Assembly (NCBI GenBank): GCA_964453135.1
Contig: CAYVOL010000003.1
Coordinates: 33,976 to 97,975, forward strand
Source of the DNA: an uncultured Candidatus Saccharibacteria bacterium
Lineage (GTDB): Bacteria > Patescibacteriota > Minisyncoccia > UBA6257 > UBA9933
Length of the DNA: 64,000 nt
Reading direction: 5' to 3'
The number at the start of each line of letters is the position of its first letter. The stretch's first letter is position 1. This document shows positions 3,092 to 63,249 of this stretch, piece after piece. Both the position numbers and the translations under genes were made by a program. The notes beneath the pieces were generated by a model. It ran no database searches, was not told the DNA's origin, and was given only the letters and a program-made list of their open reading frames with translations.

Positions 3092-3151
3092 ATTGATCCG
3101 GAATTTTGAAACGTGGAACTTGAAATTTGAAATTTCAATATTGAAATCTTT

Positions 3152-4435: not shown

Positions 4436-4485
4436 TACCCGTAAATTATAAATTAGTTTCACGGTTCAAGTTTTAAGTTTTTCGC

Positions 4486-7424: not shown

Positions 7425-7513
7425 AATCGTGTTAAGCGTCAAGTATTAAGTGTCAGGCGCGAATGTTTATGTTTCAAGAATTAAAACATCTTTGTGATAA
7501 ACGGATTTATTCC

Positions 7514-7972: not shown

Positions 7973-8049
7973 TCTAGTTCATAAAAGTTCGTAAAGTTTT
8001 TAAGATTAATAAAGTCAAAATTAATCAAGGTCGCTAATAATAAAGACAT

Positions 8050-10639: not shown

Positions 10640-10689
10640 ATAAGCTTTAAGCTTTTAGCTCCTAGCTTTCAGTATCTAATTTAACTTCG

Positions 10690-11250
10690 ATGAAAAAAAA
10701 TCTACAACCCAAAGCTCAAAGCTCAAAGCTCAAAGCTAGTCCGAGAGGTTTTTCCATAGTGGAACTTATAATGGCCACGGCTTTGTTTGTTATTATTCTT
10801 TCTATTATAGTCAGCATTTATTTGCGTTCTTTAGAGACGCAAAAAGCCACCCTCCATCTGATAGGAGCCAATGACAATCTGGTTTTAGCAGTGGAAGAAA
10901 TAGCGCGCGACATAAGGAACGGCACGGATTTTAACGAAGGCGACCCGAATTGTTCCAATAACGGCTTTGGCTCGGGATTGGAGTTTACTATTTATACGGG
11001 AGAAAAATTCTGTTATCGTTTTAACGGCTCCGACGCAATTGAAAAAGGAGTTTTTAATACATCAACCGGCAACTTCGATTTTCTAAAAATTACTTCCGAC
11101 GATATTCAAATCAGCGATTTCAAGATACAGAAGATTTCAGGGTTTTCCGTGCCGCGGGTCGTTGTTTTTTTCGCCGTGTCGTCCAAGAACGGCGTTTTGC
11201 GGGGAGTAAAGACTTACATTCAAACCACAGTCAGCGCGAGAAACATCTAA
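10690..11250 (+). CDS. pseudopilin / minor pilin (prepilin-type)
   Basis: Leader is MKKNLQPKAQSSKLKASPRG|FSIVELIMATALFVIILSII. The leader is encoded in part by a 7-nt tandem array (caaagct x4). Confidence 0.7.
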   Translation: MKKNLQPKAQSSKLKASPRGFSIVELIMATALFVIILSIIVSIYLRSLETQKATLHLIGANDNLVLAVEEIARDIRNGTDFNEGDPNCSNNGFGSGLEFTIYTGEKFCYRFNGSDAIEKGVFNTSTGNFDFLKITSDDIQISDFKIQKISGFSVPRVVVFFAVSSKNGVLRGVKTYIQTTVSARNI

Positions 11251-11332
11251 TCTTTTAACTTGTAGCATGAAACGTGAAACGCAAAAAAATCTCTTACAAG
11301 GTTACACGCGTTATTTACATGCCATGTGCTAT

Positions 11333-11776
11333 ATGACTAATTATTTACTGCAAAACCTAATAAAACGTTATACGTTATATGTTATACGTTATACGGACAA
11401 GAGGGGGCAGTTGATGATTTTAACGGTTTTGCTTTTGGGCGGGGTTATTATCGGCGTTACTTCCGTGGTAAGTTCATTGATTGTGTATAAAGTCCGTCAG
11501 GCAACCGACGTGGCTGATTCGGCCAAGGCCATTTTCTCCGCGGACGCTGGCCGGGAATTTGAGCTTTATCGCGCCAAAACGGGGTTAGGCGTGCCTTGCC
11601 CTTCTTTCTCCAACGGAGCGAGTTTTCATACCGAGGTAACATACGATGATTCTTCCGGCTTGCTCACTCTTTTTTCCAAAGGAAGCGGAATTAACAACAA
11701 CCGCATTTGGCACGAATTTTTCGCCTCTTCCACTATCGCCACTTCCAGCTATCCCATTAATAAAGATTGCCAATAA
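11333..11776 (+). CDS. hypothetical membrane protein, possibly a GspK/PilX-like minor pilin lacking Glu5
   Basis: The sequence ...DKRG|QLMILTVLLLGGVIIGVTSVV has a Gly before a hydrophobic helix but no Glu5. The start is ambiguous: the ORF opens at 11267, with ATGs at 11324, 11333 and 11414. A 7-nt x4 array (acgttat) lies in the putative leader region. Confidence 0.35.
   Translation: MTNYLLQNLIKRYTLYVIRYTDKRGQLMILTVLLLGGVIIGVTSVVSSLIVYKVRQATDVADSAKAIFSADAGREFELYRAKTGLGVPCPSFSNGASFHTEVTYDDSSGLLTLFSKGSGINNNRIWHEFFASSTIATSSYPINKDCQ
11365..11396 (+). repeat. heptanucleotide tandem repeat (acgttat x4) in the 5' region of a pilin-like ORF
   Basis: Direct reading of acgttat acgttat atgttat acgttat. 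Confidence 0.8.
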
Positions 11777-11824
11777 AAGTTATCCCCATCCCTTCGTTGA
11801 CAGGAGTTGAGTGAATGATAAAAT
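11776..11824 (+). promoter_or_regulatory. sigma70-like promoter with upstream AAAGTTATCCCCAT motif (left cassette)
   Basis: The elements are aaagttatccccat (11776-11789), TTGACA (11797-11802), a 16-nt spacer and TAAAAT (11819-11824), about 108 nt upstream of the ATG at 11932. Confidence 0.5.
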
Positions 11825-11931
11825 TAGTAATAATCACAAAACATGAAACGTAAATCTTGAAACTGGAGACAAACAATTGAGACAAGCTCCGAGTTTCAGG
11901 GTTCAAGTTTTATGTTTTAAGATTTTCTCCT

Positions 11932-13023
11932 ATGTTCAAATCTCCTCTTTTCTATATTAATTTAGTTCTTTTAGTAATGATTGTCAGTTTGGCATTGAGC
12001 GTTAATGTCAGCAATTCCCATCTTCCCAATTTTCTCAAAAAAGCCATTGCCCAGGTGCAGTCAATAACCGGCAGCGGCACCACCAACTATCTGGCTGTTT
12101 TCGGACAAACTTCCCCTTCCTATACCATCGGCAATTCCATTATTTATGACAATGGAACTAATGTGGGCATTGGGACGACTAATCCGCTTGTGGGATTGGA
12201 TATTGCCGGAGGACGAGGCATTCAACTATCAGACGGATCGGGCCATTATGTTTCTGCTGGTTTGAGCACTGTTACTCCCGGTTGGGCAGGTTTACATGTT
12301 GGCACCATTGCCGGACCTAATGTAGGCGGAACAGGAGGATTTTTTGCTTATGATTACAATACCAATACAGCAGTGATAGCAAGTACTTATGCTACCCGTA
12401 TTGCTTCTCGCCAAGGATTCATACAGTTCAATGCTTCTGATAACCCGTCCCAGGATCTTGGTCGGATGTGGATTATGGGAAACGGCAACGTCGGTATCAA
12501 TACCACCAGCCCTTCCCAGAGATTAGAAGTTGTTGGCAATGGCAAATTCGGAAGATTCTATGTTGTTGATACTCAATATGGCGGCGGTCCTTATGCTCCC
12601 GGCATCGGGACAGATGGAACCAACACCGGCGTTGCCGCAAATGGTGGAGGATTTTACGTCCTCAGTGGTCCTTCTGGCGCTTATGGCAATACTTATGGAA
12701 ATGATTATTGGATTAACTCTGTCGGCAAATGGGCGAGTCAGATGGGGGGAGGATTTGGCTCTTGGAGCGGCCCGTATAGTACGAACACCGCATATACTGC
12801 GGCGACTGACGGATTTGTTGTCGGATATACTTACGCAGGGGGCGATGTTTATTGCGGAGGTTATATTGACACTCCGTTGGGGGTTCGTCGTCAAGATGGC
12901 AGATCAAATCATGATGGCGCACAAGGGACCTATATGGTTCCGGTGCGAAAGGGAGATACCTGGCAGGTAACAGACACCGGTGGTTGCGGATGGACTATTT
13001 ATTGGTTGCCTGCTGGCAGTTGA
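11932..13023 (+). CDS. glycine-rich secreted protein with tail-fibre-like NVGIGTTNP / GINTTSPSQ-LEV repeats (cassette copy A)
   Basis: Signal-peptide-like N-terminus (MFKSPLFYINLVLLVMIVSLALS). Gly/Asn/Thr-rich repeats are of the kind seen in phage tail-fibre and beta-helix adhesin proteins. The first ~85 aa are nearly identical to the minus-strand paralog at 20128-21141. Confidence 0.6.
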   Translation: MFKSPLFYINLVLLVMIVSLALSVNVSNSHLPNFLKKAIAQVQSITGSGTTNYLAVFGQTSPSYTIGNSIIYDNGTNVGIGTTNPLVGLDIAGGRGIQLSDGSGHYVSAGLSTVTPGWAGLHVGTIAGPNVGGTGGFFAYDYNTNTAVIASTYATRIASRQGFIQFNASDNPSQDLGRMWIMGNGNVGINTTSPSQRLEVVGNGKFGRFYVVDTQYGGGPYAPGIGTDGTNTGVAANGGGFYVLSGPSGAYGNTYGNDYWINSVGKWASQMGGGFGSWSGPYSTNTAYTAATDGFVVGYTYAGGDVYCGGYIDTPLGVRRQDGRSNHDGAQGTYMVPVRKGDTWQVTDTGGCGWTIYWLPAGS

Positions 13024-15388: not shown

Positions 15389-15419
15389 TAAGTCCGGTGT
15401 AATTTGTGATGAAAATAAT

Positions 15420-15453
15420 AAACTCCCCCGCTAAAGCGGGGGAGTTTATTTGG
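15420..15453 (+). terminator. rho-independent terminator
   Basis: Perfect 12-bp GC-rich stem aaactcccccgc / gcgggggagttt with a taaa loop, followed by atttggt, 30 nt after the stop of the Big_2 gene. Confidence 0.8.
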
Positions 15454-15487: not shown

Positions 15488-18079
15488 TTGTTTTTGTTAT
15501 TTAATATATTCAAGTGTTATTCAATGATTTACAACCATCAGAAAATTGAAAAGAAGTGGCAAGCGTTTTGGGAGAAGAGCGGAATTTATAGAATTAAGAA
15601 AAACAGAAATAAAAAGAAATTTTATGTTCTGGATATGTTTCCTTATCCGTCCGGCGATGGGCTCCATGTGGGGCATCCCCGCGGCTACATTGCCACTGAT
15701 GTGGCGGCGCGTTTTAAAACAATGAAGGGGTATGAGGTTTTACATCCTATGGGCTGGGACGCTTTCGGGCTTCCGGCCGAAAATTTCGCCTTAAAAAACA
15801 AAATTCATCCGCGATTGGCTGTTGCTAAAAATATCAAAAGGTTTAAAAATCAGCTTAAAATGTTCGGTTTTACTTATGACTGGAGCCGCGAGATAAACAC
15901 CACGGATGAAAAATATTATAAATGGACGCAATGGATTTTTCTTCAAATGTTTCACGCCGGTTTGGCTTACGAATCTTTTGAGCCGATTAATTGGTGTCCT
16001 TCGTGCAAGACCGGTTTGGCCAATGAAGACTTGGAAGACGGACGCTGTGAGCGTTGCGGCAGTATTGTGGAAAAAAAGCCGTTAAGGCAATGGGTTTTGA
16101 AAATGACCGCTTACGCCGAACGCCTGCTTAAAGATTTGAAATTTCTTGATTGGCCACTTTCTATTGTTGAGCAGCAGAAAAACTGGATAGGAAAATCGGA
16201 GGGAGCGCTCGTAGAATTCAAGATTCAAGATTCAAGATTCAAGATTGATGTATTTACCACGCGGGTTGATACGATTTTCGGATGCACTTATGTGGTGGTG
16301 GCGCCGGAACACGAGGTTATTAAGAATTTAACATTTAGAATTAAGAATTTCGGGGAAGTAGAGAGATATATTGGGGAAGCGAAGAAAAAATCTGATTTGC
16401 AGAGAACTGATTTGGCCAAAGAAAAAACCGGAGTTGAATTGAAGGGCGTGGAAGCGATTAATCCGTTTAACGGCGAAGCGGTGCCTGTTTTTGTCGCGGA
16501 TTACGTTTTGGCGGATTATGGAACCGGCGCGGTAATGGCAGTACCGGCGCATGACAAACGTGATTACGATTTTGCTCTAAAATACGGTTTATCAATTAAA
16601 CGGGTAATTGTTTCAAATAATACACAAGTTCAGAATGATAATTCCAAATCACAAAATTTAAAACAAGCTTTTGAAGATGACGGGATTTTGGTTGATTCGG
16701 GAGATTTCACCGGTTTGATTTCGGCTAGGGCGCGGCAAGAAATGGCAAAGTGGCTGAAAAAAAATAAATTGGGGGAAGAAAAGACAAATTATAAAATGCG
16801 CGATTGGGTTTTCAGCCGCCAAAGATATTGGGGAGAGCCTATTCCGCTAATTTTTTGTCCAGCGTGCAAAGAATCAATCCAAGATCCAAGATCCAAGATC
16901 CAAGATTCAAGATTCAGTCAGGGCGAATTGTTAAACCCCGGCTGGATAGGGGTGGAAGAAAAAAATTTACCCGTAAAACTGCCGGAGGTGAAATCTTATG
17001 AGCCATCCGGCACGGGCGAATCTCCTTTGGTAAATATTAAAAAATGGGTGAATGTGAAATGTCCTAAATGTGGCGGAAAAGCCAAACGGGAAACCAATAC
17101 TATGCCGCAGTGGGCCGGTTCCTGCTGGTATTATTTGCGTTTCATTGATCCGAGAAATAATAAGGCATTGGTTGATAAAAAAAAGGAAAAAGAATGGATG
17201 CCGGTTGATTTATACGTGGGCGGGGTGGAACACGCCACCCGCCATTTGCTCTATGCCCGTTTTTGGCACAAATTTTTATACGATATCGGAGCGGTTTCCG
17301 CCAAAGAACCTTTCAAAAAGCTCGTCAATCAAGGGTTGATTTTGGCGGCTGACGGCCGCAAGATGTCCAAACGATGGGGAAATGTGATAAATCCGGACGA
17401 TATGATTGAGCAATTCGGCGCGGACTCTTTGCGTTTGTACGAAATGTTTTTAGGTCCTTTTGCGCAGCATATTGCCTGGAATATGGACGGGATAAGGGGA
17501 ATGAAAAGATTTTTGGACAGAATTTATAAAACAATATCAAAACCTAAAAGTCAAAGCCCGAAACTCAAAGTTAAAAATCAAAAATTAGAGAGATTACTGC
17601 ATCAAACTATTAAAAAAGTGACGGAAGATATCGAAGGTTTTAGGTTTAACACGGCGATTTCTTCTTTAATGATTTTATTTAACGAAATGGAACGAGAAAA
17701 CAGCGGATTAGAAATAAAACATTGCGAGTTATTTCTAAAATTACTGGCGCCGTTTGCTCCGCATATCGCAGAGGAAATATGGCAAAATTTGCGACGCAAT
17801 AATAGCGGTAAAAACGCGCGCCGCACCGTTTTCCAAAGCATTCATTCAGAGTTATGGCCCGGATATAACAAGAAATTGATTGAAGAAGAATTATTTGAAC
17901 TGGTGGTGCAAATTAATGGTAAAGTAAAAGACAAAGTTAAAGCCCATGCCGGTATTTCCCAAAAAGAAGCGGAGGAAATGGTTTTTGCTTTGCCTAAAAT
18001 CAGAGAGCTGTTAAAAGGAAAATCCGCGCGGAAAATTATTTTTGTTCCCGGAAGGTTGATCAATCTCGTTATCGCGTAA
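15488..18079 (+). CDS. leuS: leucyl-tRNA synthetase
   Basis: HIGH motif (HVGHPRGY) and KMSKS motif (KMSKRWGN), with a CP1 editing region. 863 aa. It contains two in-frame 7-nt tandem arrays. Confidence 0.95.
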   Translation: MFLLFNIFKCYSMIYNHQKIEKKWQAFWEKSGIYRIKKNRNKKKFYVLDMFPYPSGDGLHVGHPRGYIATDVAARFKTMKGYEVLHPMGWDAFGLPAENFALKNKIHPRLAVAKNIKRFKNQLKMFGFTYDWSREINTTDEKYYKWTQWIFLQMFHAGLAYESFEPINWCPSCKTGLANEDLEDGRCERCGSIVEKKPLRQWVLKMTAYAERLLKDLKFLDWPLSIVEQQKNWIGKSEGALVEFKIQDSRFKIDVFTTRVDTIFGCTYVVVAPEHEVIKNLTFRIKNFGEVERYIGEAKKKSDLQRTDLAKEKTGVELKGVEAINPFNGEAVPVFVADYVLADYGTGAVMAVPAHDKRDYDFALKYGLSIKRVIVSNNTQVQNDNSKSQNLKQAFEDDGILVDSGDFTGLISARARQEMAKWLKKNKLGEEKTNYKMRDWVFSRQRYWGEPIPLIFCPACKESIQDPRSKIQDSRFSQGELLNPGWIGVEEKNLPVKLPEVKSYEPSGTGESPLVNIKKWVNVKCPKCGGKAKRETNTMPQWAGSCWYYLRFIDPRNNKALVDKKKEKEWMPVDLYVGGVEHATRHLLYARFWHKFLYDIGAVSAKEPFKKLVNQGLILAADGRKMSKRWGNVINPDDMIEQFGADSLRLYEMFLGPFAQHIAWNMDGIRGMKRFLDRIYKTISKPKSQSPKLKVKNQKLERLLHQTIKKVTEDIEGFRFNTAISSLMILFNEMERENSGLEIKHCELFLKLLAPFAPHIAEEIWQNLRRNNSGKNARRTVFQSIHSELWPGYNKKLIEEELFELVVQINGKVKDKVKAHAGISQKEAEEMVFALPKIRELLKGKSARKIIFVPGRLINLVIA
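16217..16246 (+). repeat. heptanucleotide tandem array (caagatt x4) inside leuS
   Basis: The sequence gaa ttcaagattcaagattcaagattcaagatt gat encodes FKIQDSRFKID. Confidence 0.85.
16879..16915 (+). repeat. heptanucleotide tandem array (ccaagat x4 + tcaagat) inside leuS
   Basis: The sequence ccaagatccaagatccaagatccaagattcaagattcag encodes IQDPRSKIQDSRF. Confidence 0.85.
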
Positions 18080-20127: not shown

Positions 20128-21141
20128 TTATTGCAACGGCATCCAGTACGCCCATACATAGCAAGGTCCCCGATCTATTCCTAACGCTATGGTATAAGAT
20201 TCTCCATTTTTTATTGGGGCAGTCACGGACTCCGATTCAACACCGTTTCCGTTAATATTATTTTGAGTTATTTTCGCCCCGCTTGCCCATATTTCTAATC
20301 CACAATGAGGCCGAGTACCGCCACTAGAGGTATCGAGACTAGCGGTAACGAATCCATCGGCACTCGCGGTAGAACTATATACTGTCGGACGCGTTCCGTC
20401 GCCATTATATACTTGGGATGCCAATAGCGTTCGCGTTTGAAAACTCTTTGACATCTGGCTTGCCCATTTACCGACAGAATTTATCCAATAATCTTGAGCA
20501 TATACATTATTATAGGCAGAATTATTACCATTCATTACATAAAGACCACCATTGCTTAATGTGCCAATTACATTGCCATCAGTTCCAATTCCAGGAGAAT
20601 AGGTTCCGTATTGACTATCTCCCACGTAAAGTCTACCGAATTTTCCAATACCGGCAACTTCCAATTTTTGGGAAGGGCTGGTTGTATTGATTCCGACATT
20701 GCCAGTGTTGCCGGAAATAAACAGTCGTTCCGTATTGTTGGTGCCAGGGTTATTAGTTAAATCAGCTGAACGTAAATAAAAATTTCCGGAGTTTGGAAAA
20801 TATACCGCTCCACTTCCCTCTCCTCCCATGATGCCAATAGAATTTACCCGTATTGGACCAGCAACATCAAGTTTTGCATACTGGTTTGGATTAGTCGTAC
20901 CTATGCCCACATTGGTTCCGTTATCGTAAATTATGGAATTGCCGATGGTATAGGAAGGGGAAGTTTGTCCGAAAACAGCCAGATAGTTGGGAGTGCCGCT
21001 ACCGGTTATTGACTGCACCTGGGCAATGGCTTTTTTGAGGAAATTGGGAAGATGGGAATTGCTGACATTAACGCTCAATGCCAAGCTGACAATCATTACT
21101 AAAAGAACTAAATTAATATAAAAAAGAGGAGATTTAAACAT
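20128..21141 (-). CDS. glycine-rich secreted tail-fibre-like protein (cassette copy B)
   Basis: N-terminus MFKSPLFYINLVLLVMIVSLALSVNVSNSHLPNFLKKAIAQVQSITGSGT... is about 96% identical at DNA level to copy A, diverging after roughly 330 nt. Start set at the ATG corresponding to copy A (the ORF opens at 21162). Confidence 0.6.
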   Translation of the reverse strand: MFKSPLFYINLVLLVMIVSLALSVNVSNSHLPNFLKKAIAQVQSITGSGTPNYLAVFGQTSPSYTIGNSIIYDNGTNVGIGTTNPNQYAKLDVAGPIRVNSIGIMGGEGSGAVYFPNSGNFYLRSADLTNNPGTNNTERLFISGNTGNVGINTTSPSQKLEVAGIGKFGRLYVGDSQYGTYSPGIGTDGNVIGTLSNGGLYVMNGNNSAYNNVYAQDYWINSVGKWASQMSKSFQTRTLLASQVYNGDGTRPTVYSSTASADGFVTASLDTSSGGTRPHCGLEIWASGAKITQNNINGNGVESESVTAPIKNGESYTIALGIDRGPCYVWAYWMPLQ

Positions 21142-21251
21142 AGGAGAAAATCTTAAAAACATAAAACTTGAACCTTGGAACTTGGAACTCGTCTCAATTA
21201 TTTATCCCCAGTTTCAAGATTTATATTTTATGTTCTGTGATTATTACTCTA

Positions 21252-21301
21252 ATTTTATCATTCACTCAACTCCTGTCAACGAAGGGATGGGGATAACTTT
21301 T
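21252..21301 (-). promoter_or_regulatory. sigma70-like promoter with AAAGTTATCCCCAT motif (right cassette)
   Basis: Reverse complement reads aaagttatccccatcccttcgTTGACAggagttgagtgaatgaTAAAAT, near-identical to 11776-11824. Confidence 0.5.
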
Positions 21302-21307
21302 TGAGTG

Positions 21308-22297: not shown

Positions 22298-22364
22298 TGA
22301 TTAATTATAGCAACATATCTTAAACTTACAAAGGCAGATGAAATAGTTTATAGAGTTAATGTAA

Positions 22365-22576
22365 GAAATCCGAGCGTTGTTTACATTTCGGAATATTGAC
22401 CACTGGCGTTCCCGACCTTACTGTCATTCTGAGTCCGCCAGCTGGCGGACGAAGAATCTTACGGAGATCCTTCGCCCCGCCACAGCAGGGCTCAGGATGA
22501 CAAAAACGGTCAGGATGACCAAAATGTTCAGGATGACAATAAAAAACTACGACGAAAAGCGTAAATAACGCTATGA
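22365..22576 (+). repeat. dispersed ~200-nt structured element, copy 1 (candidate ncRNA / MITE-like)
   Basis: Shares gaaatccgagcgttgtttacatt...tgtcattctgagtccgccagctggcgg...gatccttcg...cccgcc...ggctcaggatgacaa...gtaaataacgct with 26668-26878 and 56461-56655. Confidence 0.6.
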
Positions 22577-22673
22577 TTTTACATACAAAGTTTGTAAAGT
22601 TGTAAGGTCTATATAGTTTGCAAGGTGTATAAGATTTATAAATATCAATTTAATGCAATGATATCAATGAAAG

Positions 22674-23552
22674 ATGAAATTTTATTCTAAAAATAAAAAA
22701 ACAAGCGCTGAAAAATTTTTCTTTTTGAGAAAAGACAGACTTGTTTTTCTTTTGGCGGTTATTATAGCCGGCGCGGCGATTTATGCCGCGGTTTATTCTC
22801 CGCTGTTTAGGATTAAAGATATTCAAGCGGCGGTGGCGTCCGATTCTTCGGCGGTCAATAAAGAAGAGTTGACAGCGGAATTAAAACAATTTTTTGACAG
22901 CCGCACGTTTTTTGATTCTATTTTGGGAAGCCGCAATATCCTGGTTTGGGATAATGACTTATCTAAATTTTTAAATCAACATCCCCAATGGCAATTTTTG
23001 AAAATAGACAAGGATTATTTTAAGCGGCAAATAGTTATTACCGGAGAAGAAAGAAAAAAATTCGGACTTTGGTGCCAGTCGGCGAAAGCGAGCGCCGGGA
23101 CAACGGCGGCAAAAACAGCTACGGATACAACAGAAATGACGGGAGAAAAAAATAACCTCGCGCTGTCAAAGTGCCAGTGGTTTGATGAAAAAGGGATTAT
23201 TTTTTTGGAAGCGCCGTCTGTGGAAAGCGAAATTTTTAACCGAGTAGACGATTATTCGGGGAGAGAGCTGGAAATGGGAAATTTTGTTTTGCCGGAGGAG
23301 ATGATCGGCAATTTAGTCGCGGTATTCAACATTCTGGAGACTGCCGGAGTCAATGCGAGAACGGCTATTTTGAAAGATTTGGCTTTGGAAGAAATAAGCG
23401 TGGAGCCAAAGAGCGGACCGCGGCTTATTTTTAGTTTGAACCGCGAACCATCTTTCGTCGCGCCTGCCATAGATTCTTTGAAAAAATCAGGGCAATGGGA
23501 TAAATTGCAGTATGTCAATTTTACCGTGGAAAACAGGGCGTACTATAAATAA
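22674..23552 (+). CDS. FtsQ/DivIB-like cell-division protein (tentative)
   Basis: N-terminal TM, then a POTRA-like segment (FRIKDIQAAVAS...NILVWDNDLSKF...FLKIDKDYFKRQIVITGEERKKFGLW). The assignment is by pattern only. Confidence 0.4.
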   Translation: MKFYSKNKKTSAEKFFFLRKDRLVFLLAVIIAGAAIYAAVYSPLFRIKDIQAAVASDSSAVNKEELTAELKQFFDSRTFFDSILGSRNILVWDNDLSKFLNQHPQWQFLKIDKDYFKRQIVITGEERKKFGLWCQSAKASAGTTAAKTATDTTEMTGEKNNLALSKCQWFDEKGIIFLEAPSVESEIFNRVDDYSGRELEMGNFVLPEEMIGNLVAVFNILETAGVNARTAILKDLALEEISVEPKSGPRLIFSLNREPSFVAPAIDSLKKSGQWDKLQYVNFTVENRAYYK

Positions 23553-23554
23553 GA

Positions 23555-23640
23555 AACTTGAATCTTGAAACTTGAAAATTGAATCGCGCAACTTGAATCT
23601 TGGAACTTAGATCTTGAATCCTGATACTTGGCACTTAATA
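23555..23640 (+). repeat. 7-nt-period tandem array (NNCTTGA units) between convergent genes
   Basis: Units read aacttga atcttga aacttga aaattga ... aacttga atcttgg aacttag atcttga atcctga tacttgg. Confidence 0.8.
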
Positions 23641-25323
23641 AAGTTCTTCTTTTATCTTTTTTAATATTTCTACATCGTGTTCGCGCAGGCGGTCAAAAAT
23701 TTTCATTTCCGGGTCAATGGCGATTGATTTTCCCAAATAATATCCGGCGGTAAAATGGGGGAGAATAACGTAATCGGCGCCGGCTTTATAAAGACGGGGG
23801 ATTTCCCATTCGTTTCGGGCCCTCACCACGATTTTGATGCCGCTTCCTTGCTGTCGATAATTTTTTATTTTTTCCAGCAGGTGAAGATTGTCTCTGAAAT
23901 TGGGGGCGGTGGAAATCACCAGCTTGGCTTTTTCCAGCCCGGATTTTTCTATGATTTCTTCGTCGGAGATATCGCCGAAAAGATAGTCGTGATGATTGTT
24001 TTTAAGCTGATGGATGACATCAGGATCAAAATCGACAATCAGCACATCTTCTTTTTCTAGACTAAAAGCAATGCTTTGCCCTAAGCGATGGGCGCCGATT
24101 AAAACAATGGGTTTTTCAAAATAGCGAAGAGGATAGGAGTTTTCTTTTGTTTTTCGGCGTTCAAAAATAACTAAAGATCGGGAAAGCAGAGAATAAATTT
24201 TATCGTCGTAAAGCGAAAAATAAGTGAAAAGGATAAACGACAATACTCCGGTGGCGGTGATGAGCGAAGCGGTTGCCGCGCTGATATGCCCGATTTTAAG
24301 TCCCAAAGCCGCCAGCACAAAACTAAACTCGGAAATTTGAGCTAATGTAAGGCCGGACATAAACGTGGTGTGTTTGCGGTAGCCCATAATACCCATAATG
24401 ACGAAAATAATCAGCGGTTTTCCGATGAGCGTGAAAAGAGAAAAGATAAGAACGGGAACAATCAGCGCTTGAAGCTGGGAGAAGACAAGCGATGAGCCCA
24501 GAGTTATGAAAAAAATAAGAATGAAAAAATCGCGCAATGATTTGACCTGGCCGGATATCTGATATCTCTCCGAGGAATTGGCGAGTGACAAGCCGGCTAA
24601 AAATCCTCCGATTTCCAAAGAAAGCCCGATTTTTTGGGCGCTGGCCACAATAAGAAAAGCCCAGGCAAGACTGACTAAAAATAAAAGTTCCTGCGATTTG
24701 GCGATTTTGTTAAACAGTCGAGGGATGATTTTTGCTCCGATAAAAACAGTCAGAAGAGAAAGAACAATTCCTTTAAGCGTCATCAACGTTATTGTTGTCG
24801 GCGTGATGTGATTGCGAGCGGCAAAACCAGCCAAGAAAACGAGAATTAAAATCGCGGCAAAGTCCTGCAGGAGAAGAATGCCGGTGTCAATTTTCCCGTA
24901 TAAGCTGTTTAAGTCTTTTTTTTCCGATAGCAGTTTAACTACTATAACGGTGCTGGAAAAAGTCAGAGCAGCGGCGATATATAAAGAAGCGAGCGGGTCA
25001 ATATGGAGCAAAACAGCGGTTAAATAGCCTAAAGCCGCGGTGAAAACTATTTGGAACACCCCTATTGTTAAGGCCGAGCGTCCCACTATTTTCAGGGAAG
25101 TGTAATCTATTTCCATCCCGACAAGAAAAAGCAGAAACATCAGTCCTAAATCGGAAAAAGTTTTCAAGGTCTCTTGATTGTTTAAATTGAGCAGTCCGAA
25201 ATGGCCGATAATGACGCCGGTGATAATAAGCGCCAGCAGGAGTGGCTGTTTTAGAAAATGAAAGATAACGCTTAAAACAGCGGCGATTAAGATAATAATT
25301 ACTAAATCAGCAATGCCGGTCAT
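23635..25323 (-). CDS. CPA2-family monovalent cation:proton antiporter with C-terminal TrkA-N/RCK domain (KefB/KefC-like)
   Basis: About 12 TM Na+/H+-exchanger-like core, then a Rossmann-like RCK domain (PIVLIGAHRLGQSIAFSL...). Confidence 0.8.
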   Translation of the reverse strand: MTGIADLVIIILIAAVLSVIFHFLKQPLLLALIITGVIIGHFGLLNLNNQETLKTFSDLGLMFLLFLVGMEIDYTSLKIVGRSALTIGVFQIVFTAALGYLTAVLLHIDPLASLYIAAALTFSSTVIVVKLLSEKKDLNSLYGKIDTGILLLQDFAAILILVFLAGFAARNHITPTTITLMTLKGIVLSLLTVFIGAKIIPRLFNKIAKSQELLFLVSLAWAFLIVASAQKIGLSLEIGGFLAGLSLANSSERYQISGQVKSLRDFFILIFFITLGSSLVFSQLQALIVPVLIFSLFTLIGKPLIIFVIMGIMGYRKHTTFMSGLTLAQISEFSFVLAALGLKIGHISAATASLITATGVLSFILFTYFSLYDDKIYSLLSRSLVIFERRKTKENSYPLRYFEKPIVLIGAHRLGQSIAFSLEKEDVLIVDFDPDVIHQLKNNHHDYLFGDISDEEIIEKSGLEKAKLVISTAPNFRDNLHLLEKIKNYRQQGSGIKIVVRARNEWEIPRLYKAGADYVILPHFTAGYYLGKSIAIDPEMKIFDRLREHDVEILKKIKEELY

Positions 25324-26601: not shown

Positions 26602-26667
26602 TGTTCGTTGTAGCGCGGCATAGGGATGAGAGGCAAGGATATTGCCGGGGTATGACTTGGTTTGCAA

Positions 26668-26878
26668 GAAATCCGAGCGTTGTTTACATTTTGGAATGTT
26701 GACTATTGGGGTGTGCCCGACGGCCCCACTCCTGCCATTCTGATCCGCCAGCCGGCGGAGAAGAATCTTAAGAGATCCTTCGTCCGCCCCGCCATGGCGG
26801 GGCGGGACTCAGGATGACAATAAAAACGTTTAGGATGACAATTAAAAAACAGCGATGAAAAGTGTAAATAATGCTATG
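26668..26878 (+). repeat. dispersed ~200-nt structured element, copy 2
   Basis: See copy 1. It has the same termini and internal palindromes (ccgccagccggcgg; ccccgccatggcgggg). Confidence 0.6.
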
Positions 26879-26921
26879 AAATCTTACACATAGTTTATTA
26901 CTAATCGTTACATTGTATTAA

Positions 26922-27875: not shown

Positions 27876-27982
27876 TAACAGATTCGCAGTTCGTAAAGTT
27901 TATGAAGTTTTTAAGGTTATAACGGGAGATAATTATATCCTCAATTAACTTTATGAATTTTATAAACTTTTAACTATGTTCT

Positions 27983-29921: not shown

Positions 29922-29945
29922 AAGTTTTGTTATCACCCATCCCTT

Positions 29946-31745: not shown

Positions 31746-31785
31746 AAAAATAAATTAGTTTATTGCGCGATATTTTATTATAACG

Positions 31786-31834
31786 ATTTTATCAGAAATT
31801 CCCCCCCCCGCAACAATAAAATGGGGATAACTTT
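31786..31834 (-). promoter_or_regulatory. promoter of the Cys-rich gene, with AAAGTTATCCCCAT upstream motif and a C9/G9 homopolymer in the spacer
   Basis: The minus strand reads aaagttatccccattttattgTTGCGGggggggggaatttctgaTAAAATcg. The motif is at 31821-31834, the -35 at 31809-31814, the G9 tract at 31801-31809 and the -10 at 31786-31791. Confidence 0.45.
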
Positions 31835-31929
31835 TTATAAAACATCAAGTAAACTAACTCATTTATAATTTCTTTATTTTTATTTTAATAGGGAATAGTT
31901 AATTTATAAGGCATTATTGGCGATGCTTT

Positions 31930-33462: not shown

Positions 33463-33533
33463 ACAATTTTGAGGTTTGAAATTTGAATTGATTTATTTTT
33501 GACTTCCTCGCTGTTTTTCAACACAATACCTGA

Positions 33534-35422: not shown

Positions 35423-36223
35423 ATGGGCCAAAAATTAGGACAGCATTTTTTGATAAATAAAGAGAAACTGCAAAAAATTGTTGGCGCTTTGGAATTAGAG
35501 CAGGGGGATTTGGTTTTTGAAATCGGTCCCGGGCATGGGGAGTTGACAGAAGCCATCAAGTATCAAGTGTCAGGTGTCAATATTATTGCGATTGAAAAAG
35601 ACCGGGAATTGGCAGCGGCTCTAAAAGGAAAATATAAAGATGATTTACGGGTAGAAATTGTTGAAGGAGACGCATTGAAAATTTTGTCGGAATTACTCCA
35701 AAGGCATAATCTAAAAGATAAAAGCTATAAAATTGTTGGCAACATTCCTTACTATATTACCGGACATTTATTGCGGATTTTGGGCGAGTTAAAGAACAAG
35801 CCAGCGAGAATTGTTTTGACCATTCAAAAAGAAGTGGCGGAAAGAATATGCGCGGCGCCTCCGAGAATGAATTTATTGGCGGCCAGCGTTCAGTTTTGGG
35901 CTGAGGCGGAAATAATAGATTACATTAGCCGTAAAGATTTTTTACCGGCGCCCGAAGTTGACAGCGCTATTATTGTTTTGCGCCCGCGGCGCGCGGCTTT
36001 CACGCAAATTGGCGACGAACATTATTATCGGTTCATAAAAATTTTATTCCAGCATCCGAGAAAAACTTTATTGAATAATCTCAAATCTCAAATCTCAAAT
36101 CTCAAAAATAAGGAAGAAATTATTAAGGAATTAAAAAAAATTGGAATAAATCCGCAGGATCGGCCGCAGGATTTAGGTCTGGATAATATTATTGAGCTGG
36201 CAAAGAGTTTTGGTTATAATTAG
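35423..36223 (+). CDS. rsmA: 16S rRNA (adenine1518/1519-N6)-dimethyltransferase
   Basis: The GQHFL start, the SAM-binding EIGPGHGELT and the NIPY motif are present. It contains an in-frame aatctca x4 heptamer array (36083-36110). Confidence 0.9.
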   Translation: MGQKLGQHFLINKEKLQKIVGALELEQGDLVFEIGPGHGELTEAIKYQVSGVNIIAIEKDRELAAALKGKYKDDLRVEIVEGDALKILSELLQRHNLKDKSYKIVGNIPYYITGHLLRILGELKNKPARIVLTIQKEVAERICAAPPRMNLLAASVQFWAEAEIIDYISRKDFLPAPEVDSAIIVLRPRRAAFTQIGDEHYYRFIKILFQHPRKTLLNNLKSQISNLKNKEEIIKELKKIGINPQDRPQDLGLDNIIELAKSFGYN

Positions 36224-43903: not shown

Positions 43904-44032
43904 ATAAAACTTGAATCTTAAAACTCAAATCTTGAATTTTAAAATCACAACGAGAACTCTAAACTTGGAAATTCAGTCACAGATATTTTTTAATAGAGAT
44001 TTTGGGTTTTCTTTCTCTAGTTTTGTTATTTT

Positions 44033-51806: not shown

Positions 51807-51856
51807 TCTCCGCTCTTGTTCTTGACTCTTGACACTTGACGCTCGACACTTATTCT

Positions 51857-52726
51857 ATGCCCGAGTTGCCGGAAGTTCAAACAATTATTGATGATTTGAA
51901 TAAGAAAATTAAAGGCGAAATTATCGCTGATTTTTGGAGCGACTGGAAAAAATCCCTTAAAGCGATTTCTCCGGAGCAATTTAGGCGCGCTGTAAAGAAT
52001 AAAAAAATTTTAAGAGCGCGCCGCAAGGGAAAAAATATTTTTATTGACTTGAGCGGCGGGAAAACTATTTATCTTCACCTTAAAATGACCGGCCATCTTT
52101 TAGTTAAGCCGGCCGGTAAAATTTCGGATTTGGAAAAAAAATATTTTGCCGAAAAAGTTAATCAGTATATTCACCATATTTTTTATTTTAGAAGCGGGAA
52201 AATCATGACCTTTTCCGATTTAAGAAAATTCGGGAAAATTATTTTAGTGCCTACTTCACAGGCGGAGGATTTGCCGGAAATAAAAAATTTGGGGGAAGAC
52301 GTTTTATCTCCAAGTTTTACATTGGAGAAGTTTAAAAATCTTTTGGCGAAAAAAAGAAAACTTTCTCTGGTTGTTTTTTTAGCGGACCAGCAAATTTTAA
52401 GCGGCATCGGCAACATATACCGCAGCGAAATTTTATTTGAAGCCGGCGTTTTGCCATGGAGGAAAGCCGGCGAACTGGAAGAAGAAGAAATTGGAGATGT
52501 TTATCGTGCCATTGGAAAAATTTTGAAAAAAGCGATAAGATTGCGGGGCACCTCCGACAGCGATTATCGGGACACCTCCGGCACTCCCGGAAAATTCCAA
52601 AATGTTTTGAGGGTTTACCGCAGAGAAGGCGAGAAATGTTTGGTATGTAAGAAGGAAATTAGGAGGGTAAAAATCGGAGCGAGAAGCGTCTTTTATTGCC
52701 CGCGATGCCAGAATCGTGAATCCTGA
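51857..52726 (+). CDS. mutM: formamidopyrimidine-DNA glycosylase
   Basis: It starts MPELPEV, giving the catalytic Pro2 after Met removal. It has the H2TH region and a C-terminal zinc finger CLVCKKEI...CPRCQ. The start was moved from 51836 to the Fpg-type ATG. Confidence 0.85.
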   Translation: MPELPEVQTIIDDLNKKIKGEIIADFWSDWKKSLKAISPEQFRRAVKNKKILRARRKGKNIFIDLSGGKTIYLHLKMTGHLLVKPAGKISDLEKKYFAEKVNQYIHHIFYFRSGKIMTFSDLRKFGKIILVPTSQAEDLPEIKNLGEDVLSPSFTLEKFKNLLAKKRKLSLVVFLADQQILSGIGNIYRSEILFEAGVLPWRKAGELEEEEIGDVYRAIGKILKKAIRLRGTSDSDYRDTSGTPGKFQNVLRVYRREGEKCLVCKKEIRRVKIGARSVFYCPRCQNRES

Positions 52727-52772
52727 ATCGTAAATCTTGAATCGTGAATCGTGAATTCTAACCATTCAATCA

Positions 52773-56460: not shown

Positions 56461-56655
56461 TGCCGCAGACATAGCGAAGCGAAGAATCCATCCTGTCATT
56501 CTGAATCCGCCAGCTGGCGGAGAAGAATCTCGTATTTATGCGATTGCGAATATGAGAGATCCTTCGTCCCCCGCCATGGCGGGGGACGAAGGATGACAAT
56601 TAAAACAGGATGACCATAAAAAACAACTATAAAAAGTGTAAATAATGCCTGGATT
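56461..56655 (+). repeat. dispersed ~200-nt structured element, copy 3
   Basis: It shares tgtcattctgaatccgccagctggcgg...gatccttcgtcccccgccatggcggggg...aggatgacaa...gtgtaaataatgc with copies 1 and 2. Confidence 0.6.
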
Positions 56656-56702
56656 TCTTATAGATTATAAATTAAAGATTTTTTATTCTTTTTCAATAAT
56701 AA

Positions 56703-57188
56703 ATGGGCGAAGATATTAAAAAACATAAACAACGCAATAAAATAGCAGGGTTTACTTTGGTGGAAATTTTGCTGACTTTGGCGATTATCGGCGTTTTAAC
56801 CGCGGCGGTTTTGATAATGATTAATCCTGCCCAGCAGCTGGGCGTCGCGCGCAATAATCAGCGTTCCACAAATATCAATGTTATTATCAACGCCATTGGC
56901 CAGAATATGGGAGACAATAAGGGAAGCTTCGGCTGCGTTATCGGAGATATTCCCACTTCTTCCGTAAAAATGGCAAGCGGCGCGGGAAATTACGATATTG
57001 CCCAGTGTTTGGTTGGGCCGAATTATTTGCCCAACCTTCCTTTTGACCCGACGGCGCCGGGCGCTCATTATTCTTCCAGCGCTGATTACGACACCGGTTA
57101 TTATGTTTCCAAAAATGCTTCCACCAGCCGCGTAACTATTACCGCCCCTTACGCTGAGGCGGGACAGACAATTTCCATCACGCGATAG
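56703..57188 (+). CDS. type IV pilin (prepilin-type), distal to the main pilus operon
   Basis: Leader is MGEDIKKHKQRNKIAG|FTLVEILLTLAIIGVLTAAVLIM. Confidence 0.7.
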   Translation: MGEDIKKHKQRNKIAGFTLVEILLTLAIIGVLTAAVLIMINPAQQLGVARNNQRSTNINVIINAIGQNMGDNKGSFGCVIGDIPTSSVKMASGAGNYDIAQCLVGPNYLPNLPFDPTAPGAHYSSSADYDTGYYVSKNASTSRVTITAPYAEAGQTISITR

Positions 57189-57218
57189 AGCCAAGAGCCA
57201 AAGCCGTTTAAAAATTTT

Positions 57219-58389: not shown

Positions 58390-58521
58390 ACCATAAATCT
58401 TGAATCGCGAAACTTAAATCCCGAACCCTATTTTAATCTTGTTTATTTTTCCGTTTATCCCCCCATGGGGCGCCTGCTTAAGATGAAATCTAAAAAAGAA
58501 AAAATTAAAAACGAGAAGAAG

Positions 58522-59778: not shown

Positions 59779-59827
59779 CTCGTTGTATGAATCTTGAATC
59801 GCGAAACACTGCTTAATTTATCGTGCC

Positions 59828-60232: not shown

Positions 60233-60310
60233 TTATAAATTACGGATACATCCGAATGCCCCGAATAAATTAGCGGTATTCGCATAAATTCGTTGGTTAG
60301 CATTATTATT

Positions 60311-60520
60311 ATGGAATTAAAACGTCGCGGCGGAGAATCGGCAAGCGCTTTTCTCTACCGCTTTTCCAAAAAAATTCAGCACAGCGGAGTTTTGCGCGAG
60401 GCGAAAAAGAGAAGGCATCTCGGCCGCGCCATTAACAAAAATAAAAGAAAGGCCTCGGCTATATACAGAGAAAATAAAAAAGCGGAAGTGGAGAGGATGA
60501 AAAAGCTGGGGAAAATGTAG
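60311..60520 (+). CDS. rpsU: 30S ribosomal protein S21
   Basis: Small basic protein with the S21-like blocks AFLYRFSKK..GVLREAKKRRH and KNKRKASA. Start assumed at MELKRR (the ORF opens at 60293). Confidence 0.55.
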   Translation: MELKRRGGESASAFLYRFSKKIQHSGVLREAKKRRHLGRAINKNKRKASAIYRENKKAEVERMKKLGKM

Positions 60521-60643
60521 ATTTGAGTTCATAAAGTTTGTAAAGTTCATAAAGTTAGTTAAGGATTTAAGTCCATATTCATAGAGTTAGCATGGTAATG
60601 TGGTTCTTGCAGTTATATTTATAAACATTATAAATTTCACTAT

Positions 60644-62175: not shown

Positions 62176-63168
62176 ATGAACCAATATCAAAGATCTTACA
62201 TTGAATTTCTCCGGAAATTTCTAAAACCGGCGAAGCCGCTAAAAGTAGTTTTTGATTGTTCCAACGGCTCGGCGGGAATCGTATTGAAGCATTTATTATT
62301 CAATAGCCGGCGGACAAAAAAACTGAAAGTTTTTTTGATAAACGAAAATCCCGACGGAAATTTTCCGGGACACGGCCCTAATCCGTGGGCTGATAACGCG
62401 ACTGACCAATTAAAAAAAGAGGTTTTGCGGCAAAAGGCGGATTTGGGAATTATTTTTGACGCGGATGCTGACCGCGTTTTTTTTGCGGATAATCGCGGCT
62501 GCTTGCTTGATCCGGACGAAGCGGCTTATATGCTCATATGGCATTTAAAGCCCAAGAGGGCGGTGGCAGATATCAGGACAGGATGGCTGATAAGCAAATT
62601 GGCAATTTCTGATTTTCCCTTATCAATATCAAAATCAAAAGCAGGGCATTATTTTATAAAAAAAATAATGCGGCAAAAGGACGCTGATTTGGGCGTGGAA
62701 AAATCCGGCCATTATTATTTTAGAATTCCAAATTTGCGCGGAGGGACGCTTTATTACGATGACGGAATCTTGGCGGCTTTGGAAATGATTAACGCGGTGT
62801 CGCGTCTGCCTTATTCGCTCGCGGATTTCAGCGATTTGCTTCCGAAATATTATAGAAGCGGGGAAATCAACATCAGAATTCAGAATTCAAAATTCAAAAG
62901 CCAAAATCACAATTCAAAATCAAAAATACTAAAAAAGGTAGAGGATAGATATAAAAATACGGCGGCAAAGATTTCTCATTTAGACGGGCTATCAATGGAA
63001 TTTGAAAGTAATCTTTACGGTCAAGGGCTTGGGAGTGCCGGCGGCAATAGCTGGTGGTTTAATTTGAGGTTTTCCAACACCGAACCGTTTGTCCGCCTTA
63101 ATATGGAAGCCGAGAATGATGAGACGCTTGAAAAGGAGAAGAAAAAATTGTTATTGTTAATGAAATAA
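62176..63168 (+). CDS. alpha-D-phosphohexomutase-family protein lacking the N-terminal catalytic-Ser domain
   Basis: Domain II-IV blocks are present (VVFDCSNGSAG; GIIFDADADRVFF; EKSGHYYF) but there is no TASHNP-type domain I. It contains an in-frame 7-nt-period array (62867-62925). Confidence 0.5.
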   Translation: MNQYQRSYIEFLRKFLKPAKPLKVVFDCSNGSAGIVLKHLLFNSRRTKKLKVFLINENPDGNFPGHGPNPWADNATDQLKKEVLRQKADLGIIFDADADRVFFADNRGCLLDPDEAAYMLIWHLKPKRAVADIRTGWLISKLAISDFPLSISKSKAGHYFIKKIMRQKDADLGVEKSGHYYFRIPNLRGGTLYYDDGILAALEMINAVSRLPYSLADFSDLLPKYYRSGEINIRIQNSKFKSQNHNSKSKILKKVEDRYKNTAAKISHLDGLSMEFESNLYGQGLGSAGGNSWWFNLRFSNTEPFVRLNMEAENDETLEKEKKKLLLLMK

Positions 63169-63173
63169 TGCTA

Positions 63174-63239
63174 ACCGGCGAATTTATGCGAACACCGTGA
63201 ATAAATAAAAGGTCAACCGGCGAATTTATGCGAACACCG
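63174..63239 (+). repeat. 25-nt perfect direct repeat x2 (aaccggcgaatttatgcgaacaccg), 41-nt period, upstream of the YkuK-like gene
   Basis: Copies at 63174-63198 and 63215-63239, read directly. Confidence 0.85.
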
Positions 63240-63249
63240 CGAATTTTTT

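Follow-up and report, generated by a model that had tools for sequence, protein, structure and literature searches.

Heptanucleotide tandem repeats in the spacers and genes of a Candidate Phyla Radiation bacterium

The stretch of DNA analysed here (the window, 64 kb, ~42% G+C, gene-dense, with nearly all genes on the + strand) comes from a tiny uncultured bacterium of the Candidate Phyla Radiation (CPR) and carries many tandem arrays of 7-nucleotide (nt) units, among them the array at 23553-23634. These arrays are probably heptanucleotide simple-sequence repeats (SSRs), microsatellite-like and of the same class as the short tandemly repeated repetitive (STRR) sequences of cyanobacteria and the TAACTGA repeats of the Beggiatoaceae, in a CPR host. 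Their distribution shows that they occupy any tolerant DNA: co-directional spacers, gene ends, 5' untranslated regions (UTRs) and, in stop-free form, the variable loops and linkers of essential proteins. They are neither a new kind of genetic element nor a new terminator; what is new is the CPR host, the density of arrays in a streamlined organism, and the clade-wide persistence of arrays in leuS with concerted evolution.

The 7-nt period is a property of the intergenic DNA of the window. In its 48 spacers (3.6 kb), identity at lag 7 is 0.343, against 0.282 +/- 0.0075 in shuffled spacers (z = 8.2), with harmonics at lag 14 (z = 6.9) and lag 21 (z = 4.1); the coding DNA of the window has no lag-7 autocorrelation peak. 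This bears out the first-pass annotation, a description of the window from its letters alone, which had read a 7-nt period in the spacers. Tandem Repeats Finder (TRF) returned 15 period-7 arrays of at least 3 copies, with copy numbers up to 11.1, and no more than 2 arrays for each of the other periods between 4 and 12. Within arrays, higher-order repeats of 14, 21, 28 and 35 nt are seen. A stringent lag-match detector found 11 arrays of period 7, none of periods 4-6 or 8-11, and none in shuffled sequence. Contiguous head-to-tail units beyond chance, and an excess of length 7 over neighbouring lengths, are two marks of heptanucleotide long simple-sequence repeats (LSSRs), and both are present. 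Clustered regularly interspaced short palindromic repeats (CRISPR) are defined by 24-48-nt repeats and unique spacers of like length, whereas the units here have 7 nt and are contiguous.

Not all that was first said of the arrays holds at the level of single sites. Among the 33 spacers of at least 25 nt, a period-7 array is found at p < 0.01 in 10 and at p < 0.05 in 16, and 7 is the best period in 19; "almost every spacer" was therefore too strong. Twelve of the 13 sites originally listed have 7 as their best period (p <= 0.014 versus shuffles), but that at 60525-60600 has period 9, and the one at 11365-11396, although of period 7, is built of an unrelated unit (ACGTTAT) within an open reading frame (ORF). 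Arrays do fill spacers, as described, but they are not confined to them: of the 11 cleanest window arrays, those of the stringent detector, 7 are located in ORFs.

One family of units, AWCTTGA, recurs at 13 intergenic and 3 coding loci of the window (16 in total). Its consensus, A-W-C-T-T-G-A, derives from 72 in-phase units at the 13 intergenic loci, taken in both orientations, and conservation within the unit is uneven: positions 1, 3, 5 and 7 stand out as the best conserved, with A or T at position 2. The dimer AACTTGAATCTTGA occurs 51 times in the window with up to 3 mismatches, where 11 +/- 3.5 occurrences are expected, so that the recurrence of one unit in both orientations, claimed from the start, is confirmed. 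An exact 18-mer, AATCTTGAATCGCGAAAC, stands on either side of hisS. A genome-specific period-7 family dispersed over many mostly non-coding loci is the hallmark of cyanobacterial STRRs, and AWCTTGA has this distribution. The window also holds array-forming heptamers unrelated to it, namely CAAAGCT, TAAGCTT, ACGTTAT, AGAGCCA and AATCTCA.

The spread of period 7 was assessed over the window and related genomes, the latter represented by 118 CPR loci (1.79 Mb) around gyrA and leuS, in which ORF calls are crude and leuS loci over-represented. The stringent detector found 76 period-7 arrays in these loci, at least one in each of 34 loci, and no more than 21 arrays of any other period from 4 to 15. 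Among perfect arrays of at least 3 copies (1.85 Mb, CPR loci plus window), period 7 accounts for 24, period 8 for 4, period 6 for 1, and the other periods from 5 to 12 for none. The lengths of perfect heptamer arrays are bimodal: numbers drop from 14 to 21 nt, 6 arrays measure 24-28 nt, and a second mode lies at 30-35 nt (13 arrays, 4.3-5 copies). The detector found no array in 50 kb of E. coli K-12 and, in 100 kb of the Nostoc PCC 7120 alpha plasmid, 4 of period 7 with none at periods 4-6 or 8-10; it is therefore not biased toward 7.

Among the relatives, the period is more constant than the unit. The AWCTTGA dimer is within background range in most related loci, where arrays are built from other units, and is therefore not a lineage-wide motif. 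In the loci of two Wolfebacteria relatives whose flanks are 85-91% identical (L006 and L028), the unit is CGGTTAT in one and CCTTTTT in the other at one orthologous position; at another, the unit is shared and the copy number differs. The comparison shows that period and often locus persist among relatives, while the unit is genome-specific and turns over fast. The same two loci also contain composite strings (L006 6600-6720 and 21250-21420; L028 6500-6620 and 20800-21150) in which heptamer arrays of about 4 units (25-32 nt) follow one another with G-rich punctuation (GGGATGCGGGG) between them; the strings alternate the unit families ATAACYN, ATGACCG, GGTATAN and TAATTNC, an organisation not seen in the window.

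The coding arrays of the window include three in leuS, two in rsmA, one in the linker of a phosphoglucomutase (PGM)-like protein and one in a putative prepilin leader. Those of leuS, rsmA and the PGM-like gene are translated in frame; for leuS this follows from the Pfam domains that flank the arrays on both sides. A heptamer array runs through all three frames every 21 nt, and a coding array therefore needs its own frame to be stop-free throughout. Of the eight coding arrays checked, seven lack sense-strand stops in every frame; the eighth, at 16319-16349, is stop-free in its own frame. Coding arrays use the reverse unit, TCAAGAT, and most spacer arrays carry sense-strand stops; the forward unit contains TGA and is therefore restricted to spacers or gene ends, such as the fpg stop at 52711. 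This stop-codon filter accounts for most of the orientation pattern. The related CPR loci have 15.2 arrays per 100 kb of intergenic DNA and 3.3 per 100 kb of ORF (a 4.6-fold difference), with 53 of 87 stringent arrays in ORFs.

Stop-free arrays also lengthen ORFs upstream, which is why start-codon calls vary among pipelines. The alternative starts are 51836 and 51857 for fpg, 10690 and a shorter NCBI call, and 58465 and 58522; the pilin-like gene has 163 aa at NCBI and 186 aa in the Logan assemblies, and hisS has 418 aa in Logan and 437 aa as an ORF.

The clearest record of how arrays change comes from leuS. In an alignment of leucyl-tRNA synthetase (LeuRS), segments 16216-16246 and 16319-16349 flank the conserved TTRxDT region, and both are equal in length in most orthologs, with slight differences in a few. 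In one clade (~17 loci) these segments are near-perfect heptamer arrays with a unit that differs per genome (ATTCAAG, GTTCAAA, ATTCTCA or GGATTAA in the first segment; TCAAATA, AATCTCA or GCAAATT in the second), and outside that clade they are ordinary sequence. The array segments are as long as the non-repetitive orthologous ones, so that they are conversions in place, not insertions. A core common to the units, ATTC, is read in three different frames and so supplies the conserved Phe, Ile and Asn-Ser; the non-core positions vary among genomes and are uniform across the units of one genome. Within genomes, unit identity is 0.82 and 0.81 for the two segments; units at equivalent positions in different genomes reach 0.64 and 0.65 (permutation p < 0.001). 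Units are thus more alike within than between genomes, the signature of concerted evolution, and the alignment indicates that active homogenisation at constant length is at work inside essential leuS. A G+C-rich relative outside the array clade (L072) has an independent heptamer-like array, cgggtgg cgggtgg cgagggt cgggtg, at the same leuS position, with a lag-7 identity of 0.69; this hints at a leuS site recurrently prone to heptamer formation.

The window encodes GyrA, a type IV pilus cluster, LeuRS, CysRS, HisRS, RsmA, Fpg and PBP2, as well as two MreB copies, MreC, a VirB4/TraG-like ATPase, and PrgI/type IV secretion system (T4SS) pilin-like proteins. GyrA matches metagenome-assembled genomes (MAGs) labelled Candidatus Wolfebacteria or Paceibacterota, at no more than 76% identity, and the host is therefore placed in the CPR; to judge from these matches, it is close to Candidatus Wolfebacteria. 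In a metagenome scan, the LeuRS of the nearest relative found was at most 69% identical. An Rfam scan of the window at the gathering threshold and a tRNA scan gave zero matches. Contigs of the Logan assemblies SRR5161805 and SRR5161795 are 99.8-100% identical to the window with zero indels, and the arrays at 3101, 4455, 23553, 58390 and 59780 are unchanged in them. Since independent assemblies reproduce the arrays, the repeats are not assembly artefacts.

In the preferred explanation, arrays would arise in situ from proto-repeats, and their homogeneity would be upheld by replication slippage or template switching in 7-nt steps together with multi-unit duplications. Selection would act as a filter only: in genes, stops would be removed and the frame and key residues kept; in spacers, growth would be nearly free. 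The recurrence of AWCTTGA at 16 loci would imply spread between loci (ectopic conversion) or selection. Any function would be secondary and not tied to the exact sequence, the likeliest being that of an unstructured stretch between cistrons, free of Shine-Dalgarno (SD) sites.

Several observations weigh against this explanation. Slippage alone leaves unexplained the recurrence of AWCTTGA at so many intergenic and coding loci and the 18-mer that flanks hisS. The sense strand of spacers mostly carries the stop-containing orientation (8 vs 2). Some loci keep an array among relatives, perhaps because an array as such is selected, whatever its sequence. A simple geometric model of slippage predicts no second length mode, yet perfect arrays have one at 30-35 nt. 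Copy-number polymorphism was not seen: the two Logan assemblies, the sole same-organism assemblies found, show no strain-level variation, and protein clusters at 90% gave no informative variants. Nor does the explanation account for the 7-nt step; the one idea in print points to how much DNA the replicative polymerase holds (PMC4679880; PMC4692102).

A bolder and less probable reading can be put forward tentatively. It proposes that an unusually strong, heptamer-specific, length-preserving homogenisation in Paceibacteria-type CPR rewrites weakly constrained DNA, including leuS loops over the history of the clade, and that arrays are perhaps co-opted as SD-free leaders between cistrons.

Arrays of this type have precedents. 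Heptanucleotide repeats are the most over-represented long SSRs in bacteria, heptamers lead the longer SSR units in abundance in most genomes, and slippage has been proposed for them (Mrazek, Guo & Shah 2007, via PMC4679880, PMC4692102). Heptamer arrays are known in Calothrix, Nostoc and the Beggiatoaceae (PMC4679880, PMC4692102, bioRxiv 10.1101/2022.06.06.494920). The element type being already described, the claim that no element with this organisation was known fails. With prokaryotic LSSRs the window shares head-to-tail 7-nt units, the dominance of heptamers, diverse units within and between genomes, and a proposed origin in slippage. In the 2007 survey by Mrazek et al., long repeats with units of 5-11 nt reportedly came mostly from free-living bacteria that have large genomes; the window, from a CPR organism, has a density of ~17 stringent arrays per 100 kb. 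The survey reportedly also noted a preference for unit lengths in multiples of 3 in coding DNA, whereas many heptamer arrays here are coding. Among the papers searched, none ties CPR or Patescibacteria to heptamer or simple-sequence repeats.

Cyanobacterial STRRs (Calothrix PCC 7601, Nostoc/Anabaena PCC 7120) share with the window the period of 7, a mostly intergenic position, genome-specific families and frequent proximity to starts or promoters. The units of STRR1-3 are CCCCAGT, TTGGTCA and CAACAGT. Those of the window are AWCTTGA and others, in a CPR host, so that phylum and units both differ; the window arrays are also shorter and more degenerate, and their density is ~4 times that of the Nostoc plasmid sample. 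Under the same detector, that sample gives a signature like that of the window, with period 7 and no neighbouring period. The TTTTGAA/TTCAAAA arrays found upstream of Nostoc genes (bioRxiv 10.1101/2022.06.06.494920) are near the window units in sequence.

A close parallel in placement is the TAACTGA repeat of the marine Beggiatoaceae, giant sulfur bacteria, for which binders of the S1, cold-shock protein (Csp) or CsrA type have been proposed (MacGregor 2015, PMC4679880). In both systems one family occurs at many intergenic sites near SD-less starts, with no predicted RNA structure; the forward orientation has stops in three frames and may overlap the upstream stop codon, and the reverse orientation occurs inside ORFs, at the protein periphery. 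The window arrays follow this pattern of placement and orientation, although TAACTGA/TCAGTTA itself has zero occurrences in the window. In the Beggiatoaceae direct repeats are of one heptamer and related heptamers rarely repeat, whereas the window has a degenerate family along with coexisting units; arrays at conserved positions of essential genes and clade-wide concerted evolution also set the window apart. The H. influenzae hmw1A/hmw2A promoter and E. coli K1 neuO share the tandem 7-nt units, and neuO repeats are translated as 7-residue peptide repeats. These are single, perfect and highly polymorphic surface or virulence loci; the window has dozens of arrays, mostly degenerate, in housekeeping contexts and with no polymorphism seen.

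The alternative that survives best, though it is considerably less probable than slippage-made repeats, places the function of arrays on the mRNA. Arrays might be a loading platform for a single-stranded RNA-binding protein with a footprint of ~7 nt (S1 or a cold-shock-domain protein), or might be unstructured leaders for SD-independent initiation or re-initiation; on this view they would be generated by slippage and retained by selection. Just 2 of the 57 start codons of the window have an SD core upstream, against 13.5% of random positions, and this near-absence fits the proposal. Six arrays stop 2-6 nt short of a start codon (among them the starts 3152, 4486, 7463, 51857 and 21162 on the - strand), several of them at internal cistrons; arrays are unstructured as RNA, and one unit family serves many loci. 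A like arrangement, with the same hypothesis, has been published for Beggiatoaceae TAACTGA (PMC4679880) and Nostoc TTTTGAA (bioRxiv 10.1101/2022.06.06.494920). The largest array (23553-23634), however, lies between convergent genes with no start codon near, the register of units to the ATG varies and is nowhere fixed, both orientations are found upstream of starts, and folding z-scores are mostly as in shuffles, not clearly weaker. In relatives, the distances of arrays to starts and stops are broad, and the unit differs between close relatives at one locus; identical arrays lie within coding regions, where no initiation is expected. Taken together, the varied register, broad distances, mixed orientation, convergent main array and shuffle-like folding make a translational role a secondary possibility. 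In many first genes (e.g. 9499, 21308-, 23635-, 25411-, 26068, 37429, 57219-) a TATAAT-like box lies 5-9 nt ahead of the ATG, a placement that suggests widespread leaderless mRNAs in the host.

A second proposal, that arrays are half-sites on double-stranded DNA for a sequence-specific regulator or nucleoid protein, is improbable. Heptameric direct repeats do bind Streptomyces antibiotic regulatory proteins (SARPs) in Streptomyces (PMC5930380), and the AWCTTGA family, with its uneven conservation within the unit, recurs at many loci as binding sites would. Helical phasing had at first been dismissed for a 7-nt period; a single unit indeed does not match the helix, but the dismissal was incomplete, since 3 x 7 = 21 bp makes two helical turns and every third unit would fall on one face. 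SARP sites, however, are 7-nt repeats at 11-nt spacing and not contiguous units. The window contains several unrelated units side by side, one unit gives way to another between close relatives, essential genes carry arrays in frame, arrays keep no constant register relative to start codons, and Pfam scans of most window ORFs found no array-linked regulator gene. A single sequence-specific binding protein, as initially suggested, is thus unlikely to be the primary cause.

It is equally hard to credit that the arrays are contingency loci for phase variation, in which slippage by 7 nt would switch genes as at the H. influenzae hmw1A promoter or E. coli K1 neuO. Perfect arrays of 4-5 units do exist; the one at 10710-10737 falls within or ahead of a pilin-like gene, others are close to the type IV pilus genes, and neuO shows that in-frame heptanucleotide repeats can be translated (PMC13001214, PMC8653822). 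Most spacer arrays, though, are too degenerate to slip efficiently (65-85% unit identity), and the perfect arrays lie mainly in leuS, rsmA and the PGM-like gene, where a 7-nt frameshift in essential leuS or rsmA would be lethal, not adaptive. Assemblies from two samples show zero length variants.

Nor is it at all likely that the arrays are footprints or cargo of mobile elements, such as 7-bp target-site duplications or miniature elements. The AWCTTGA family at many loci and the identical 18-mer around hisS would suit such an origin, as would the situation in L006 and L028, where G-rich punctuation interrupts the arrays and a dispersed 'caggatgaca' hairpin element lies beside them. Elhai et al., in 2008, are said to have described small dispersed repeats embedded in cyanobacterial heptamer arrays. 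Against this, the leuS arrays were converted in place at the length of non-repetitive orthologs, Pfam scans of most window ORFs found no transposase, integrase or reverse transcriptase, and the exact 18-mer has no match in viral contigs.

Least credible is the idea, raised in the first-pass annotation, that in this lineage the arrays mark transcript ends in place of intrinsic terminators, with or without the help of a factor: they lie inside long co-directional gene runs where they abut the next start at 2-6 nt, in 5' UTRs and in ORFs; their minimum free energy (MFE) of -2 to -9 kcal/mol is that of dinucleotide shuffles (z -0.6 to +2.2), with no hairpin followed by a U-tract; and real terminators exist alongside them. 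What speaks for it is that many arrays begin at a stop codon or only a few nt from one (23553, 43905, 52711, 58393, 10641), as intrinsic terminators do, that terminator-like hairpins in the window are at chance level relative to shuffles, and that the convergent pair at 23553 has no hairpin. Arrays nevertheless lack both stem-loop and U-tract, and a scan for terminators (a G+C-rich stem-loop with a U-tract) gave no match inside them. A canonical bidirectional hairpin terminator is present at 15417-15450, and classical terminators follow gyrA in five relatives (L002, L004, L005, L006 and L028), with heptamer arrays beside those of L006 and L028. Since terminators and arrays coexist in relatives, the lineage has not replaced its terminators. 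The sole strong structure in an array is the 5'-UTR hairpin at 11852-11911, which has a paralogous copy at 21165-21224 (Table 1). As for Rho utilisation (rut) sites, the arrays are unstructured, but with C at 0.17 and G at 0.18 on the sense strand they are neither C-rich nor G-poor, and most are shorter than 50 nt against ~70-80 nt for a rut site; this candidate was rejected.

Table 1. Period-7 arrays of the window, with position, strand, unit and surroundings
Position	Strand	Array	Surroundings	Values
23553..23634	+	Main array; ~11 degenerate AWCTTGA units (gaaactt gaatctt gaaactt...); 35-nt higher-order repeat	Whole 82-nt spacer between convergent genes 22674..23552 (+) and Na+/H+ exchanger 23635..25323 (-); no hairpin; Logan contig identical	Lag-7 0.65, z 7.7; RNA MFE -3.6 kcal/mol, z +1.7
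3101..3147	+	AWCTTGA family	Between gyrA and solute-binding protein gene; 4 nt from ATG; no SD, no hairpin	z 4.9
4455..4480	-	Reverse family (TCAAGWT on sense strand)	5 nt from pilB-like ATG	z 4.7
7430..7460	-	Degenerate reverse family	2 nt from ATG of pilin-like gene	z 4.1
10641..10667	+	TAAGCTT units	Directly after stop codon	p 0.003
10710..10737	+	Perfect (CAAAGCT)x4	Putative prepilin leader of ORF 10690..11250, or 5' UTR under shorter NCBI call	
11365..11395	+	(ACGTTAT)x4.4, unrelated unit	Within ORF 11267..11776	
11852..11911	+	Forward and reverse family units as two hairpin arms	5' UTR, downstream of promoter-like site 11797-11824	-28.1 kcal/mol, z -3.9
16216..16246	+	Perfect (ATTCAAG)x4.4, stop-free reverse orientation of family unit	In leuS; peptide EFKIQDSRFKID	
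16319..16349	+	Degenerate ATTAAGA	In leuS; peptide IKNLTFRIKNF; perfect array at orthologous segment in relatives	
16877..16913	+	(ATCCAAG)x5.3	In lineage-specific leuS insertion; peptide SIQDPRSKIQDSRF	
21165..21224	-	Family array 21165-21189 in paralogous promoter/5'-UTR block	Abuts start of gene 20128..21162	
33468..33487	+	Short family-like (TTTGAGG TTTGAAA TTTGAA)	After stop of Mg-chelatase-like gene	p 0.013
35555..35580	+	ATCAAGT	In rsmA/ksgA, variable segment following GPGxGxLT motif	
36077..36106	+	Perfect (AATCTCA)x4.3	Near rsmA 3' end; peptide NLKSQISNLK	
43905..43975	+	Family array, 14-nt higher-order period	Begins 2 nt past stop codon	z 4.1
51815..51851	+	CTTGACA type	Fills spacer before fpg; true fpg ATG 51857 (MPELPEV), 5 nt downstream	z 4.8
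52711..52756	+	(GAATCGT)x6.6	Overlaps and supplies fpg stop codon, extends toward PBP2 gene	z 6.4
57187..57205	+	Short (AGAGCCA)x2.9	Overlaps stop codon between convergent genes	p 0.003
58393..58427	+	Family array with 18-mer AATCTTGAATCGCGAAAC	Upstream of hisS	
59788..59808	+	Family array with 18-mer AATCTTGAATCGCGAAAC	Downstream of hisS	
62873..62925	+	(TCAAAAT)x7.9	Linker of domains III/IV, PGM-like ORF; peptide IRIQNSKFKSQNHNSKSK	

Repeats of other kinds share the window with the heptamers. A period-9 family (AGTTCATAA / AGTTCGTAA / AGTTTGTAA) lies just downstream of three genes, at 7976-8007, 27888-27967 and 60526-60556, with an inverted copy at 27947-27967; its pattern matches 6 times where 0.04 matches are expected, and a similar sequence, gttcataaagtccgtaaagtttataaagtt, occurs in one related locus (L032). 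A dispersed element of ~200 nt is present in three copies (22360-22580, 26660-26900 and 56470-56670) with a mean column identity of 72%. Each copy has a pair of G+C-rich hairpins (tccgccagctggcgga; ccccgccatggcgggg), CAGGATGACAA boxes in tandem and a tail, aaaagtgtaaataatgc, that is conserved. The element looks like a miniature inverted-repeat transposable element (MITE)-like or regulatory intergenic repeat. Logan contigs break at these elements, and similar gtcatcctgaac / ccgccagccggcgg modules adjoin heptamer arrays in L006 and L028.

A promoter and 5'-UTR block is duplicated at 88% identity, at 11777-11931 and, on the - strand, at 21163-21307, upstream of the Pfam-less genes 11932..13023 and 20128..21162. 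The block holds a AAGTTATCCCCATCCC box, a long hairpin and the best sigma-70-like promoter of the window (TTGACA-16-TAAAAT with TG); further GGGGATAACTT-like boxes are found at 29922-29945 and inside 31746-31929. The 411-nt "spacer" at 60233-60643 contains an unlisted small ORF on the + strand that resembles ribosomal protein S21 (MELKRRGGESASAFLYRFSKKIQHSGVLREAKKRRHLGRAINKNKRKAS...), and the Logan annotation calls a 77-aa gene on the opposite strand. At 63169-63249, in the spacer before an RNaseH-like gene, a direct repeat of ~40 nt occurs twice (aaccggcgaatttatgcgaacaccg...), with a similar cgaataaattagcggtattcgcataaattcg at ~60265.

Dense repeats in a streamlined CPR organism are of interest because useless DNA would be expected to be purged there, and because the arrays persist in frame at orthologous sites of an essential gene, in a genome nearly without Shine-Dalgarno sites. 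They also bear on annotation: arrays shift predicted starts and stops, yield low-complexity peptides in housekeeping proteins, and may break short-read assemblies. If the tentative reading of a heptamer-specific homogenisation is correct, this process would be a property of the replication or repair machinery. CPR genomes measure ~1 Mb. Genomes so small should hold few candidate polymerases and repair proteins, and for this reason the CPR would become a tractable system in which to ask why bacterial tandem repeats prefer 7 nt.

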